Shown in pieces: positions 21,587-40,529 of a DNA stretch of 64,000 nucleotides. This stretch comes from Leptospirillia bacterium (GTDB taxonomy: Bacteria; Nitrospirota; JACRHL01). The position numbers were made by a program, and so were the translations under genes. The stretch spans positions 26,964 through 90,963 of the forward strand of contig JBHHVE010000007.1 of NCBI GenBank assembly GCA_046754085.1. The letters are read 5' to 3'. Each line of letters begins with the position of its first letter. Position 1 is the first letter of the stretch. Below the pieces are notes generated by a model. The model was given only the letters and a program-made list of their open reading frames with translations, was not told where the DNA came from and ran no database searches.

Positions 21587-21716
21587 TTATTCCGATTTTA
21601 ATCACTTACCCGGAGCGGCTGGCGGACGAAGTATAGAAACCCCGGCGCGCCGCCGTCAAATACACTCCAAGGTCGCGTAATGTATAGTAATCCCATCTCT
21701 TTTTTTCGTCTTTTTT

Positions 21717-22913
21717 GTGACCACTCCGATGACTGACGAATTGCCCCTTTTCTTCGATCAGATTAACGGTGCCCCGCCGCTTCCGGAGGTGGTGACCGGG
21801 ATGACCCCCTGGATCGCTCTTTCGGCCAACCCGCAGGCCGACCACCAGTACGGTCGCCGCGCCCACACCGCCATGGAAGAGGCCCGCGCCCGGGTCGCGC
21901 TCCTGATCGGCGCCCGACCTGAACAGGTTCTTTTCGGCGCCAGCGGCACCGAAGTAAACAATCTGGCGATTAAAGGCACACTCAAGGCCAACCGCAAGAA
22001 AGGCCGGCGCATCGTGCTCTCCGCCGTGGAGCATCCCAGCGTGGAGCGTGCATGCCGCCGCATGACCGAGGCTCCGGGGGATGGCTACGACACCGTCATC
22101 GTCGGTGTCGACCGGGACGGTCGGGTGGATCCGGACAACCTGATGGCGGCAGTGACCGATGACACCGCGATGGTCTGCCTGCAACTGGCCAACCCGGAGG
22201 TGGGAACCGTTCAGCCGGTGGCGGACGTGGCCCGGTTCCTGTCCGGCCATCGGGCGCTTCTCATGGTGGATGCGGTGGCCGCCGCGGGCCGGATTCCGAT
22301 CGCTGTGGAAACGCTGGGGGCGGATTTGATGACCTTCTCCGCCCCCCCCATGGGAGGCCCCGCCGGAGCGGCGGCGCTGTGGGTGCGGAGGGGGGTGCGG
22401 ATACAGCCGGAAATCGACGGCGGCGTGCAGGAAGGCGGGCGGCGCGGCGGCACCGAAAACGTGGCGGCCATCGTCGGATTTGGCGTCGCCGCCGCCTGCG
22501 CCTACCAGGGCCTCACGGAACAGGGAGCACACCTCGACATGCTGGCGGACCGGCTGCGGGATGCCATCGGTTCCATCAGCGGCCTCAGCTTCACCGGACC
22601 GGATAACAAAAGACTCCCCGGCCACGTCAGCTTCCGTGTGGACGGCATCGAGGGCCAGAGCCTGCTTTTACGACTGGATCAGGCCGGTATCGCCGCCTCC
22701 TCCGGTTCGTACTGCGGGGCCAAGGCCATGAAGGCCTCGCCGGTGCTCACTGCCATGGGCTATCCCCCGGAGGCGGCACTGTCCGGGGTGGTGTTCTCCT
22801 TCGATGCGAAAATCGACGCCCGGAATGTAGACGAAGGCGCCCGACGGCTGCGAGAATGCGTGGAGAATCTCAGACGGGCATTTCCGGCGGGTACATCGGG
22901 GCCGACGGCGTAA
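21717..22913 (+). CDS. IscS/NifS-like class-V fold protein lacking the PLP-binding lysine
   Basis: Collinear with E. coli IscS as recalled: ASGTEVNNLAIKG, SAVEHPSV, RGGTEN, and the Cys loop SSGSYC. Where IscS has FSGHKIYGPKG, this protein has FSAPPMGGPAG, and DATQ is DAVA. Confidence 0.8.
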   Translation: MTTPMTDELPLFFDQINGAPPLPEVVTGMTPWIALSANPQADHQYGRRAHTAMEEARARVALLIGARPEQVLFGASGTEVNNLAIKGTLKANRKKGRRIVLSAVEHPSVERACRRMTEAPGDGYDTVIVGVDRDGRVDPDNLMAAVTDDTAMVCLQLANPEVGTVQPVADVARFLSGHRALLMVDAVAAAGRIPIAVETLGADLMTFSAPPMGGPAGAAALWVRRGVRIQPEIDGGVQEGGRRGGTENVAAIVGFGVAAACAYQGLTEQGAHLDMLADRLRDAIGSISGLSFTGPDNKRLPGHVSFRVDGIEGQSLLLRLDQAGIAASSGSYCGAKAMKASPVLTAMGYPPEAALSGVVFSFDAKIDARNVDEGARRLRECVENLRRAFPAGTSGPTA

Positions 22914-22977
22914 CCGCCACATGGGCGCCGCCCGGAATGCCGCATAGTAATTTGAATGAATGATTGGGAACCCTGCC

Positions 22978-23208
22978 ATGCAAGCCGACCTGACCCTGGA
23001 TGCCACCGGGCTATACTGCCCGATGCCGATTATCATGACCGCCAAGGAGATCAAGAAGATCGAAGTGGGGCAGATACTGGCGGTCAAGGCGGACGACGAA
23101 GGCATTCAGGCGGACCTTCCCGCATGGTGCAAAACCACCGGTAACGACCTGCTGGAGATTTCCCGGGACGGCTCGGTGTTTACCGGGTTCGTTCGCAAAA
23201 CCAAGTAA
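22978..23208 (+). CDS. tusA: TusA-family sulfur carrier
   Basis: MQADLTLDATGLYCPMPII contains the CPxP motif. An alternative ATG lies at 22960. Confidence 0.85.
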   Translation: MQADLTLDATGLYCPMPIIMTAKEIKKIEVGQILAVKADDEGIQADLPAWCKTTGNDLLEISRDGSVFTGFVRKTK

Positions 23209-23259
23209 TCGAATCAACGGCCTCTTTTTTTTTAACTGCTTTTTAAGGAGCGTACAACC

Positions 23260-23844
23260 ATGCCGCAAGTAACCTCTGCCGCCCCCGAGTTCAAAGCGCA
23301 AGCGCTGATGCCGGACAAGACCTTCAAGGAGATATCCCTCTCCGACTACCGTGGCAAGTGGGTGGTATTGTTCTTTTACCCCCTCGACTTCACCTTCGTC
23401 TGCCCCACCGAGATCATCGCGTACTCGGAAAAACAGGCGGAGTTCGAAAAGATCAATGCCCAGGCCATTGCCTGCTCGGTGGATTCGCACTACACCCATC
23501 TGGCGTGGGTCAACACCCCCCGTTCCGAGGGCGGTCTGGGCGACATGAAGATCCCCATGGTGGCCGACCTCTCCAAGCAGATCGCCGATGACTACGGCGT
23601 CAAGCTCGATGGGGGCATCGCCCTGCGCGGCACCTTCATCATCGACCCGGAGGGGATCATCCGTCACTCCACCGTGAACGACCTGCCGGTAGGCCGCAAC
23701 GTGGATGAGGCCAGCCGCATCATCCAGGCCTTCCAGTTTGTGGAAGAGCACGGCGAGGTCTGCCCCGCCGGATGGAACCCGGGCGACGACACCATGGTGC
23801 CGGATCCGGACAAGTCGAAAACCTACTTCGGCAGGCACGGCTAA
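23260..23844 (+). CDS. Typical 2-Cys peroxiredoxin (AhpC/Prx1 type)
   Basis: The peroxidatic Cys lies in [15 protein letters not shown] and the resolving Cys in [10 protein letters not shown]. Confidence 0.92.
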
Positions 23845-38012: not shown

Positions 38013-38357
38013 ATGAAACGTGCGTTTGTAGATGAAATCAACCAACTCCATGCGGAGTTGTGTCAGGCCCTGGCAGATCCCAAGCGCCTGCTGATCCTGT
38101 ATGCCCTGGGCGATGGCTCCCTTTCGGTGGGAGACCTGGCCGATCGGCTCGGGCTTCGGCAGTCCAACGTTTCCCAGCACCTTGCGGTTCTCAGGGACCG
38201 TGGCCTGGTGGTGGCGCAACGCGCCGGCACCACTGTGTATTACTCAATCAAGTACCCCATGGTTCTCGAAGCCCTGGACCTGCTGCGCGGGGTGCTCAAA
38301 GACAAACTGACCGAGGCGCGGGACCGCGCCGACCGTTTCATGGAGATGACCCGATGA
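38013..38357 (+). CDS. ArsR/SmtB-family transcriptional regulator
   Basis: Motifs: LCQALADPKRLLILYAL, VGDLADRLGLRQSNVSQHLAVLRDRGLV. Contains a single Cys (C17). Confidence 0.88.
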   Translation: MKRAFVDEINQLHAELCQALADPKRLLILYALGDGSLSVGDLADRLGLRQSNVSQHLAVLRDRGLVVAQRAGTTVYYSIKYPMVLEALDLLRGVLKDKLTEARDRADRFMEMTR

Positions 38358-38605
38358 GCGATATCGCATCCGACACGGCTGTGGACCAGATCCTGGACAT
38401 CTGTGGCGTGACCTGCCCGATCACCTTTGTGAAGAGCAAGCTGACCCTGGAGCGCATGCAGCCCGGACAGGTACTCAAGGTCCTGATCGACTATCCGCCG
38501 TCGGCGGAGAACGTGCCCCGCAGCCTGGCCCATGAAGGCCACGAGATCATCAGCATCACCGAGACCGACGGCCCGCTCTGGACCCTGCTGGTCCGCAAGG
38601 CTTAG
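38354..38605 (+). CDS. TusA-like sulfur carrier (variant CPIT motif)
   Basis: ATG 38354 overlaps the arsR-family stop (ATGA). LDICGVTCPITFVKSKL has a Cys-Pro, but the second Pro of CPxP is Thr. Confidence 0.8.
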   Translation: MSDIASDTAVDQILDICGVTCPITFVKSKLTLERMQPGQVLKVLIDYPPSAENVPRSLAHEGHEIISITETDGPLWTLLVRKA

Positions 38606-38625
38606 ATGGCATAAGGCGCCCCACG

Positions 38626-38970
38626 ATGGCCAAGAAACTCGGCATTCTGCTCAACACAAGCCCGGAGCACCAGAATACCTACACCGCCTGCCAGCTGGCC
38701 CAGGCCTTCCTCGACGATGGCCACGAAGCGGAGCTGTTCCTGATGAACGACGGGGTCTACAACGTGATCCGCAACAACGAATCGCCCTACCGGCTGTTCG
38801 GCGGGGTTGAGGACCTGATGAGCAAGGGGCTCAAGGTCAGCCTGTGCCTGACCACCGGGGACATCCGGGGGCTGTGCCAGGATGATTTTCTGGAAGGGGT
38901 GGAATGCTGTAGCCAGGACCATCTGGCCGACATCGTGACTGCCGCGGACTACTTCCTGCATTTCGGATAG
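38626..38970 (+). CDS. DsrE/TusD-like protein (compact, 114 aa)
   Basis: MAKKLGILLNTSP.., LFLMNDGVYNV, and Cys74 in VSLCLTTGDIRG, which matches the DsrE/TusD active-site context C-x5-RG. Confidence 0.75.
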   Translation: MAKKLGILLNTSPEHQNTYTACQLAQAFLDDGHEAELFLMNDGVYNVIRNNESPYRLFGGVEDLMSKGLKVSLCLTTGDIRGLCQDDFLEGVECCSQDHLADIVTAADYFLHFG

Positions 38971-38975
38971 CGATC

Positions 38976-39320
38976 ATGAAGAACGTCGTCCTGCTTTTGC
39001 GCCACACCCCCCTGAACCACATCAAGAACCTGGAGGCGTTCCGCCTCGGTCTCGGCCTGACCCTGAGCAACAACGAGGTCACGGTGGCGATGATCGATCA
39101 GGGGGTGTTCAATGCCCTCGATTTCCGGCCCGAGGTGGTGGGACGCCCCTCGGTGGACAGTTTTCTGGACTTCTACGGCGACGTCGGCGTGCGCTCACTG
39201 GTGGACCGCGAGGGCGTTGCCCAGGCGGGCATCAGCACCCTGCGTGAGGGCGTTGAAGCGGTGGATAGAAAAGAAATCATCGAGATGCTGCGCAGCGCCG
39301 ACCTGGTTATCCCGTTCTAG
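38976..39320 (+). CDS. DsrF/TusC-like protein (114 aa)
   Basis: VVLLLRHTP..EAFRLGLGL..VAMIDQGVFNAL...ADLVIPF is the DsrE/F-fold pattern and lacks the active-site Cys. Confidence 0.7.
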   Translation: MKNVVLLLRHTPLNHIKNLEAFRLGLGLTLSNNEVTVAMIDQGVFNALDFRPEVVGRPSVDSFLDFYGDVGVRSLVDREGVAQAGISTLREGVEAVDRKEIIEMLRSADLVIPF

Positions 39321-39329
39321 GAGAAGAGA

Positions 39330-39578
39330 GTGGCGAAAACCCTGCATATTCTCCGCAACCTGGACATCCGGCTCTGTCAGGAAACGCTGAACGCCCCGGC
39401 GGGTGACTCGGTGCTCCTGATTCAGGACGGCGTACTGGGACGCGACCATTTTGACTGTGAGGTCCGTGTCTGTCGTGACGACCTTACCGCCCGCAACATG
39501 GAGAGCAGCCACAAGGCGCTTTCCTATACTGAAATCAAGGACCTGATGCTGGCCCACGACCGCGTGATTCTATGGTAG
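39330..39578 (+). CDS. DsrH/TusB-like protein (82 aa)
   Basis: GTG start. LHILRN..RLCQETL..SVLLIQDGV has a Cys16 positioned like DsrH Cys20 of Allochromatium (recalled). Confidence 0.65.
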   Translation: MAKTLHILRNLDIRLCQETLNAPAGDSVLLIQDGVLGRDHFDCEVRVCRDDLTARNMESSHKALSYTEIKDLMLAHDRVILW

Positions 39579-39621
39579 CCGAGGGGTCCGGACCGAATAT
39601 CCGTTTGGAGGTTTATTTGTC

Positions 39622-39864
39622 ATGAGTGAGACCATTCAGGTCGATCAGGAACTCGACTGCCGGGGGCTTTCCTGCCCGCTGCCGATCGTCAAGACCAAGA
39701 AGGCCATCGACGGCATGGCGGTGGGACAAATCCTCAAAATGACCGCCACCGATCCTGGATCGGTGAACGACATGGCCGCCTGGGTCCGAAAAACCGGCAA
39801 CGATATAGTGGACCAGACCGAAGCCGGCGGCGAGTACACATACTTTATCCGCAAAGCCGGGTAG
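39622..39864 (+). CDS. tusA: TusA-family sulfur carrier
   Basis: LDCRGLSCPLPIVKTKKAI contains the CPxP motif; also ATDPGSVNDMAAW. Confidence 0.88.
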   Translation: MSETIQVDQELDCRGLSCPLPIVKTKKAIDGMAVGQILKMTATDPGSVNDMAAWVRKTGNDIVDQTEAGGEYTYFIRKAG

Positions 39865-39929
39865 CGTTAGAGTTATACATGGACCCGCGGCACGCCGAGG
39901 GCCATTCAACACATAGGAATCCGCCACCC

Positions 39930-40529
39930 ATGAGCGAGACGGACAAGAACATAGACAGCATTGTCGAGGAACGGCTACAGGCCCTGCTCGACCAGAAACT
40001 CGGCAGTCTGGTGGACGAGCGGGTGGCCAAGGCCCTGGCCGAGCACGAGGCCGCCCAGGGCGGTCAGCTCGACCGCATCGCCATTGTCGCCTCCAAGGGC
40101 AGCCTGGACATGGCCTATCCGCCCCTGATCCTCGCCACCACGGCGGCGGCCATGGGCATGGAGGCCGGTATCTTCTTCACCTTCTACGGCCTCGACATCA
40201 TCAACAAAAAGAAGAACGCCCACCTCCAGGTGCCGTCTCTGGCCAACCCGGCCATGCCGGTGCCGGTGCCCAACATCATCGGCGCCCTGCCGGGCATGAC
40301 CATGGCGGCCACCATGATGATGAAAAACTGGATGGGCCGGGTGAACCTCAACTCAATCCCCGAGTTCCTCGAGATGGCCCTGGACCTGGACTGCAAGCTG
40401 ATCGGCTGCCAGATGACCATGGACGTCATGGGCACCTCGAAAGAGGACATGATCGACGGCATCGAAGTCGGTGGCGCCGCCACTTTCCTGGAGTATGCCA
40501 GCAAGGCCAAGATCAGCCTGTTTATCTAA
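39930..40529 (+). CDS. DsrE2-like (DsrE/DsrF-like family, COG2210-type) protein
   Basis: ATG 39930. Motifs: IAIVASKGSLDMAYPPLILATTAAAMGMEAGIFFTFYGL, CKLIGCQMTMDVMG. Confidence 0.75.
   Translation: MSETDKNIDSIVEERLQALLDQKLGSLVDERVAKALAEHEAAQGGQLDRIAIVASKGSLDMAYPPLILATTAAAMGMEAGIFFTFYGLDIINKKKNAHLQVPSLANPAMPVPVPNIIGALPGMTMAATMMMKNWMGRVNLNSIPEFLEMALDLDCKLIGCQMTMDVMGTSKEDMIDGIEVGGAATFLEYASKAKISLFI

Follow-up and report, generated by a model that had tools for sequence, protein, structure and literature searches.

A TusA-linked, lysine-less IscS-like protein in a Nitrospirota genome: a putative persulfide relay without pyridoxal phosphate

Introduction

IscS-like proteins without the lysine that forms the Schiff base with pyridoxal 5′-phosphate (PLP) are already known through the structure and the inactivity of IscS2 from Archaeoglobus fulgidus. 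This protein is reported to be inactive since an aspartate takes the place of the lysine (PMC7585200; title of PDB entry 4R5F, D199K), and its cysteine reportedly coordinates the [2Fe-2S] cluster on IscU (PMC7585200, PMC13066941). IscS1 of Methanosarcina acetivorans is likewise without the lysine (PMC7585200). Inactive IscS proteins have so far been treated as archaeal curiosities; according to reviews, the sulfur sources of minimal iron–sulfur (Fe-S) systems are unclear (PMC13066941). Here we describe a lysine-less protein of the IscS/NifS fold, labelled IscS* throughout, which is encoded on the plus strand at 21717..22913 of a 64,000-nucleotide stretch of contig JBHHVE010000007.1 (GenBank assembly GCA_046754085.1) from a Leptospirillia bacterium of the phylum Nitrospirota. 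This whole stretch is referred to as the window, and coordinates are those of the window unless a contig is named.

IscS* has lost five residues that hold PLP or substrate in an active desulfurase, has kept the cysteine of the mobile persulfide loop (Cys333), and adjoins a TusA gene with whose lineage it has co-diversified. We consider that it probably acts as a PLP-free persulfide relay or adaptor working with TusA via Cys333, and put the probability of this reading at roughly 0.55. New with respect to the archaeal precedent is a derived, IscU-free IscS*-TusA(-peroxiredoxin) variant in which an IscU-docking motif has been lost and new invariant cysteines have appeared. The association of lysine-less IscS proteins with TusA provides a testable answer to the question of where their sulfur comes from.

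An intact gene for a desulfurase-fold protein

The gene and the stretch of it that most affects its reliability are as follows.

21717..22913, plus strand: IscS*, an intact open reading frame, 398 aa from GTG at 21717 or 394 aa from ATG at 21729
22342-22349, plus strand: run of eight C residues, containing the codons of Pro210-Pro211 (22344-22349)

The ATG at 21729 is the start in the gene call of the public collection (P0001). The protein matches the class V aminotransferase domain Aminotran_5 (PF00266, E=3e-54) over nearly its whole length. Its AlphaFold2 (AF2) model has an intact fold, with a predicted local distance difference test (pLDDT) score of 89 and a predicted template modelling score (pTM) of 0.89; the Cys333 loop is given low confidence, as is expected of a flexible, mobile loop. 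Against NFS1 and the IscS proteins of A. fulgidus and E. coli, Foldseek gives template modelling (TM) scores of 0.88-0.94. None of the NCBIfam equivalog models for NifS, IscS, DndA, SufS and CsdA reaches its cut-off, the best being NifS at 311.8 bits against 530.75. Judged from its sequence, IscS* appears to have the IscS/NifS fold (type I, class V) without its catalytic function and to belong to the lysine-less lineage typified by A. fulgidus IscS2.

An initial annotation, made from the letters of the window without database searches, had described a continuous reading frame whose Pro-Pro codons at the former Schiff-base site sit inside a run of eight C, and both points hold. This position is also the one argument for an artefact, in which a homopolymer error or the recent inactivation of a decaying pseudogene would have produced the Pro-Pro pair. 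Logan contigs from two separately assembled runs of one hydrothermal-vent sample show 0 differences over 22200-22500 (word depth 25x and 29x), and neither alternative reading frame encodes His-Lys at the run. The His-Lys pair is also missing from all orthologues and from each of the 120 nearest homologues, a set that comprises the best 120 matches in a collection of 5.8 billion proteins. Since the two run assemblies agree and the orthologues are without His-Lys, a sequencing error in the C-run is excluded. A decaying pseudogene was likewise rejected: the frames are intact in 7/7 genomes of the GTDB family, and the ratio of non-synonymous to synonymous substitution rates (dN/dS) is below 1, with pairwise values between orthologues of 0.22-0.52 at a dS near saturation. 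The gene is real and under purifying selection, and we attach next to no weight to the artefact explanation.

Loss of the catalytic residues

Residues were compared in a MAFFT alignment of IscS* with E. coli IscS and two lysine-bearing paralogues from the same genome, and E. coli numbering is used for comparisons. The numbering of the E. coli sequence used agreed at K206, C328, H104, D180, Q183 and R354. The principal positions in IscS* are listed here.

22344..22349, plus strand: Pro210-Pro211 at His205-Lys206, the PLP Schiff-base site (phmmer and MAFFT alignments)
22278..22280, plus strand: Ala188 at Gln183, the ligand of PLP O3′ (MAFFT alignment)
22791..22793, plus strand: Val359 at Arg354, which binds the substrate carboxylate (MAFFT alignment)
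22713..22715, plus strand: Cys333 (E. coli Cys328), the persulfide-loop cysteine, in the loop ASSGSYCGAKAMKAS; invariant in 120/120 homologues

In a phmmer search of PDB sequences, FSAPPMGGPAG of IscS* pairs without gaps with FSAHKMYGPKG of a lysine-bearing desulfurase, and the MAFFT alignment likewise sets Pro210-Pro211 against His205-Lys206 of E. coli IscS and the two paralogues. The replacement of His-Lys by Pro-Pro and of the glutamine of the DATQ motif by alanine, both claimed in the initial annotation, is thus upheld by formal alignment, and every motif that it quoted is found in the protein. The loss of Arg354 had escaped it, as had the inactive A. fulgidus precedent, the large lysine-less family, the usual IscU neighbour of that family, and the loss of the adjacent IscU and of a C-terminal motif in the Nitrospirota clade. 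The position of Asn155 is occupied by Pro160. Since the lysine of the Schiff base and the histidine beside it are replaced, together with Gln183, Asn155 and Arg354, IscS* is predicted to be unable to desulfurate cysteine.

Other parts of the active site are retained, namely Thr78 (T76), His106 (H104), Asp185 (D180), Ser208 (S203), Thr246 (T243) and Cys333 (C328), the last of these within an SSGSYC motif on the mobile loop. The loop around Cys333 is the most conserved 15-residue window of the Nitrospirota clade to which IscS* belongs (0.93). Column identity at the former His-Lys site, at 39-43% (0.39-0.43), is among the lowest in the clade: none of 23 clade orthologues has His-Lys, and the position varies freely between PP, ST, SN, PG, DS, AP and VN. 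Selection therefore appears to preserve the mobile-loop cysteine and its surroundings.

The core of the initial annotation, a dead desulfurase homologue linked to TusA, stands as far as the sequence goes. Its alternative was a non-canonical mechanism, by which IscS* would still be a PLP enzyme that binds the cofactor non-covalently and performs desulfuration or a related β-elimination. His106, Asp185 and Thr78 do remain in the PLP pocket and the pocket strand is conserved. Yet five residues that hold PLP or substrate are replaced, Arg354 among them, orthologues differ freely at the former His-Lys site, reports describe the archaeal relative as inactive, and all the curated desulfurase cut-offs of NCBIfam are missed. 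We regard residual PLP chemistry as very unlikely.

A family of lysine-less IscS proteins

All 120 nearest homologues are without Lys206, His205, Gln183 and Arg354 and all keep Asp180 and Cys328. The Gln183 position is alanine in 108 of them and another residue that is not glutamine in the rest, and the Arg354 position is Val, Leu, Ile or Ala. A profile of the wider family retrieved 80 metagenome loci that show the same division: the presence of Lys206 is always accompanied by Gln183 and Arg354, and its absence never by Arg354; Gln183 is lost in all lysine-less loci except one (L049), which keeps it. IscS* carries the residue set of the lysine-less IscS2/MisS proteins: Lys206 lost, a hydrophobic residue at Arg354, a small one at Gln183 and the loop cysteine kept. 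A. fulgidus IscS2 (PDB 4EB5, 4R5F) is among its best PDB matches. The alignment with this protein covers its C-terminal part, and the exchange of Lys for Asp is taken from PMC7585200 and the title of 4R5F.

Two further observations concern the sequence positions that mark this family. Shortly after the loop cysteine the charge switches: in the sequences sampled, the residue aligned with E. coli Glu334 (Lys339 of IscS*, 22731-22733) is lysine in 86/87 lysine-less proteins and Asp or Glu in 39/42 lysine-bearing ones; this lysine is no absolute marker, since the lysine-bearing PDB protein 9WEP has it as well. The top PDB sequence matches of IscS* (9WEP, 9WER, 9WEW, 9WF8, 9WFB, 9WFE and 9WFY) form a series from 2026 in which a single cysteine desulfurase of 406 aa is varied at positions characteristic of the lysine-less family, e.g. 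by Arg354 to Val, Thr76 to Ile and changes in the DAVQ motif.

Association with TusA

The gene that follows IscS* encodes a TusA protein on the same strand, as the initial annotation had stated.

22960..23208, plus strand: TusA with a CPMP motif (GLYCPMP); PF01206, E=1e-22; start probably ATG at 22978, giving 76 aa

It begins 47-65 nt 3′ of IscS*, well inside the 2 kb used in our own survey of gene neighbourhoods. In this survey, genes within 2 kb were counted at loci whose sequence extends at least 1.3 kb downstream, of which 31 were lysine-less and 27 lysine-bearing, with the following results.

TusA neighbour: 24/31 lysine-less, 0/27 lysine-bearing (Fisher p=2.5e-10, uncorrected for phylogeny)
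IscU neighbour: 29/31 lysine-less, 19/27 lysine-bearing
DsrE2 neighbour: 14/31 lysine-less, 0/27 lysine-bearing
Cys-rich zinc ribbon neighbour: 18/31 lysine-less, 0/27 lysine-bearing
Rubrerythrin neighbour: 8/31 lysine-less, 0/27 lysine-bearing

The gene orders seen are NifU-IscS*-IscU-zinc ribbon-TusA-rubrerythrin, IscS*-IscU-zinc ribbon-DsrE2-TusA, TusA-IscS*-IscU and IscS*-TusA. The context of the wider family is thus Fe-S assembly, given that the lysine-less protein normally adjoins IscU. One such locus (L010; GCA_040961035.1, JBFOMV010000029.1, 4779-10764) carries rubrerythrin, superoxide dismutase (SOD), lysine-less IscS, IscU, zinc ribbon, DsrE2, TusA, SufC and SufB-like genes on one strand, a run that sets a lysine-less ISC pair beside a minimal SUF-type scaffold.

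The TusA proteins have diversified together with their lysine-less partners. The TusA next to IscS* shares 51-54% identity with the TusA proteins that other phyla encode in IscS*-IscU-DsrE2-TusA clusters, and is closer to these than to the other two TusA proteins encoded in the window. The TusA tree has the topology of the IscS* tree: the TusA proteins of the Nitrospirota family form the sister group of those from loci L099 and L053, within a clade of IscS*-linked TusA proteins, and the two other paralogues from the window fall outside this clade. Of the evidence that IscS* and TusA work together, this co-diversification is the strongest. No published link between TusA and a lysine-less IscS or MisS protein was found in the literature searched, whose coverage did not extend to subscription journals. 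The conserved windows of the IscS* clade include helix α2, which in E. coli IscS forms the face that binds TusA (PMC2854127).

A Nitrospirota clade without an adjacent IscU

The clade of IscS* is well supported (Shimodaira–Hasegawa-like, or SH-like, support 1.0) and sits on a long stem, with 0.79 substitutions per site. Two IscS*-TusA pairs form its sister lineages (support 0.986); they have no adjacent IscU, and their genes overlap or lie 27 nt apart. The clade is present and intact in 7/7 genomes, from 7 genera, of a single Nitrospirota family in GTDB, and was absent from the other ~194 Nitrospirota genomes sampled; one genome from another Nitrospirota family carries TusA-IscS*-IscU instead. 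Scanning of genome contigs with clade-specific patterns returned 6 loci, a number that gauges the clade and not the wider family. The family genomes share a syntenic block, with HD-GYP and HEAT genes followed by divergent IscS*-TusA-peroxiredoxin-MlaEFD, and identities across them are 55-64% for IscS*, 74-83% for TusA and 77-86% for the peroxiredoxin. The loss of His-Lys and the IscS*-TusA-peroxiredoxin neighbourhood that the initial annotation saw in one genome therefore recur across the family.

Three features distinguish the protein in this clade.

22866..22913, plus strand: variable C-terminal tail in place of the motif LRxMSP(L/I/V)(Y/W/F) (sequence alignment)
22176..22178, plus strand: Cys154, invariant in the clade and specific to it (E. 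coli Ser149; Ser or Thr in all other groups)
22857..22859, plus strand: Cys381, an invariant cysteine in the last helix (E. coli Ser376), common only to the two sister IscS*-TusA pairs

No IscU is found within 5 kb of IscS* in any family genome, and the only IscU of the present genome adjoins the canonical IscS on contig C21. The C-terminal motif is absent in 23/23 clade members, and present in all 21 lysine-bearing and other lysine-less sequences displayed, which represent every group, the sisters included. It falls within segment 376-404 of E. coli IscS, which is part of the IscU interface and the deletion of which abolishes IscU binding (PMC2854127). Cys154 lies within the second most conserved window of the clade, TAMVCLQLANPEVGT. 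With the adjacent IscU and the C-terminal motif gone, and Cys154 and Cys381 gained, the module has probably been re-purposed in this family.

These findings bear on an explanation modelled on A. fulgidus, according to which IscS* is a structural partner of the single, distantly encoded IscU of the genome and Cys333 ligates a nascent [2Fe-2S] cluster, TusA doing no more than deliver sulfur. The nearest characterised relative acts in this way, IscU adjoins the lysine-less gene at nearly all loci of the wider family in our survey, and Cys333 is invariant. Against this, the clade has neither a nearby IscU nor the motif of the IscU-docking segment, its long stem branch indicates changed constraints, and the existing IscU pairs with the canonical IscS. 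We consider an A. fulgidus-like role unlikely here, and rank it first among the rival explanations.

The host genome

The host genome is 98% complete, with 2.7 Mb and 63.5% GC. It encodes two lysine-bearing desulfurases, a canonical IscS on contig C21 and a NifS-like protein on contig C13, so that IscS* is not needed for desulfuration. The canonical IscS (C21:41190-42287; locus L002) is itself unusual for an IscS in having Ser at His104 (SAIESRPV) and Glu at Gln183 (FTDATEAAG). SufB/D had no family match in the genome, and Fe-S assembly in the host seems to rest on ISC and the NifS-like protein; IscS* would be an accessory, not a housekeeping Fe-S partner. A gene for haem-copper oxidase subunit I is present, and the host, which has a canonical ISC system, is probably aerobic or microaerophilic. 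Given this oxidase gene and the canonical ISC, the IscS*-TusA module is not simply an anaerobe's replacement for cysteine desulfuration.

A search for DsrA, as a link to dissimilatory sulfur metabolism, gave no match above cut-off in the host genome. A separate region (C38:4543-6849) holds a fourth TusA-like gene (C38:4543-4761) beside an open frame of 846 aa with two weak, sulfite-reductase-like matches to the dsrA model.

The two active-type paralogues of the same dimeric fold, and the location of the gene near a peroxiredoxin, are what might be expected of a regulatory pseudoenzyme. Such a protein would carry no sulfur, and would sequester TusA or heterodimerise with the canonical IscS or NifS, throttling or redirecting sulfur flux, for example under peroxide stress. 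In E. coli, competition of TusA and IscU for IscS is reported to steer sulfur flow (PMC11302665). A decoy has no need of a loop cysteine, yet the Cys333 loop is the most conserved part of the protein; moreover, the pairing with TusA is ancient and is also found where the lysine-less protein appears to be a partner of IscU. A purely regulatory role seems improbable to us, and we place it second after the A. fulgidus-like one, followed by residual PLP chemistry and then artefact, the last two being very unlikely.

A proposed persulfide relay

We favour a PLP-free relay or adaptor. In such a scheme, TusA loaded from another source would dock on IscS* and exchange sulfane sulfur with Cys333, through a contact resembling that of E. 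coli IscS with TusA, possibly with the direction of transfer reversed. In most of the lysine-less family the sulfur would then go to the adjacent IscU for Fe-S assembly, an onward delivery that would have been abandoned in the Nitrospirota clade. Here, Cys381 and/or Cys154 are candidates for internal acceptor or resolving thiols, and the module may act under peroxide stress together with the co-located peroxiredoxin. The lost catalytic residues, the conservation and purifying selection, the linkage and co-diversification with TusA and the lost C-terminal motif are shown here; we infer the absence of PLP, the direction of sulfur flow, the acceptor and the tie to peroxide stress.

A more specific proposal, which we consider unlikely, is that the dead IscS is a self-contained persulfide handler. 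TusA would load Cys333 with sulfane sulfur, and Cys381, located at the former docking site of IscU, would supplant IscU as the acceptor or resolving thiol, possibly with the involvement of Cys154. IscS* would then be a PLP-independent, thiol-based carrier or reductase of persulfides, operating with a thioredoxin-type system and the peroxiredoxin under oxidative or sulfide stress, in the Nitrospirota family and its sisters. If this were true, a TusA-fed, lysine-less IscS would represent a widespread route of sulfur trafficking that is independent of cysteine.

Several points weigh against the relay. That IscS* is without PLP and without activity we infer from its residues and the archaeal precedent, and, as His106, Asp185 and Thr78 are conserved and the pocket strand highly so, a ligand of some kind may still be bound in the old PLP pocket. 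IscS* has Arg in place of Trp45, without which E. coli IscS does not bind TusA, although this tryptophan is not general outside the IscS subfamily. The statistic of the TusA survey ignores kinship among loci, and the clade that unites all lysine-less proteins, inside which IscS* groups, has weak support (SH-like 0.47). Finally, the adjacency of the peroxiredoxin is inseparable from inherited gene order within the family, the whole block of eight genes being syntenic.

In the Nitrospirota variant, which has shed IscU and the docking motif and kept TusA, the interaction of IscS* with TusA is thus separated from the chemistry of an Fe-S scaffold. It thus represents a clean system in which the role of this pair can be tested.

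The peroxiredoxin, the upstream region and a second sulfur-relay cluster

Downstream of TusA lies a peroxiredoxin gene, and upstream of IscS* a divergent intergenic region.

23260..23844, plus strand: typical 2-Cys peroxiredoxin (AhpC/Prx1 type), with AhpC-TSA and 1-cysPrx_C Pfam domains
21587..21716, no strand assigned: divergent intergenic region with promoter-like elements (pattern matches and alignment of orthologous upstream regions)

The peroxiredoxin has the motifs of the peroxidatic cysteine (FTFVCPTE) and of the resolving cysteine (GEVCPAGW), and reaches the cut-off of no NCBIfam subfamily. Its linkage to IscS* had been taken in the initial annotation as a hint at a role in redox or persulfide stress. 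The adjacency itself is confirmed, the evidence for the role being positional; peroxide-defence genes recur beside other family members, with a peroxiredoxin here and at locus L053, and rubrerythrin or SOD elsewhere. These neighbours hint at a use in oxidative stress.

In the intergenic region, a TTGACG/TATACT promoter-like pair faces the minus-strand HEAT and HD-GYP genes and is conserved. Alignment of the upstream regions of orthologues also reveals a conserved GGTATAGT 5′ of IscS* (window 21683-21691). An element (T/C)ATAGTAAT occurs twice, before IscS* at 21683-21691, where it matches the conserved GGTATAGT and adjoins the TTGACG/TATACT pair, and before TusA at 22943-22951. In the aligned upstream regions no clear operator for a regulator was found, and only promoter-like elements are conserved.

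The two other TusA genes of the window, which bring the number of paralogues to the three given in the initial annotation, belong to a separate sulfur-relay cluster (region given as window 38013-40529).

38384..40529, plus strand: second sulfur-relay cluster, tight and on the same strand, in the order TusA, DsrE-like, DsrE/F-like, DsrH-like, TusA, DsrE2
38384-38602, plus strand: TusA
38626-38970 and 38976-39320, plus strand: two DsrE-family genes
39330-39578, plus strand: DsrH-like gene, a weak match
39622-39864, plus strand: TusA
about 40071-40529, plus strand: DsrE2

This cluster at 38.4-40.5 kb could supply sulfane sulfur; nothing ties it to the IscS* cluster. A novel DsrEFH sulfur transferase described in a 2026 ISME J paper may be relevant to it (PMC13293266).

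Comparison with known systems

The canonical counterpart of the pair is the E. coli IscS-TusA complex (PDB 3LVJ), which consists of members of the same two families; in the window, the genes of these partners adjoin. The loop cysteine and the CPxP cysteine of TusA are both present in the window pair, and helix α2 is conserved in the clade. In contrast, E. coli IscS makes a persulfide with PLP and passes it to TusA, whereas IscS* is predicted to be incapable of making one, so that its sulfur would have to come from another source. The E. coli interface residues Trp45, Glu49 and Asp52 also differ, being Arg, Thr and Glu in IscS*.

The canonical IscS and the NifS-like protein of the same genome share the fold and length class of IscS*. 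Unlike IscS*, both keep His-Lys and Arg354; the NifS-like protein (C13) also keeps Gln183, where the canonical IscS (C21) has Glu.

A. fulgidus IscS2 (PDB 4HVK, 4EB5, 4EB7; D199K variant 4R5F) resembles IscS* in that the PLP lysine is replaced and the loop cysteine retained. Of the structural matches it is the one with the highest identity (37-38%, at a Foldseek TM score to target of 0.93-0.94), and its Leu at the Arg354 position is hydrophobic, as is Val in IscS*. It differs in being encoded with IscU, in having been crystallised in complex with IscU and in carrying a C-terminal ...LRSMSPLY motif. IscS* has no adjacent IscU and no such motif, and instead has two additional invariant cysteines and TusA and peroxiredoxin neighbours.

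Closest in gene context are the bacterial and archaeal cassettes of lysine-less IscS/MisS with IscU. As in IscS*, K206, H205, Q183 and R354 are lost and a lysine is found at E334, and the adjoining TusA proteins come from the same subfamily as the TusA beside IscS*. These cassettes differ in nearly always including IscU (29/31), and in many cases also DsrE2, rubrerythrin and a Cys-rich zinc ribbon, whereas the IscS* clade sits on a long branch and IscU, DsrE2 and the zinc ribbon are absent from its cluster.

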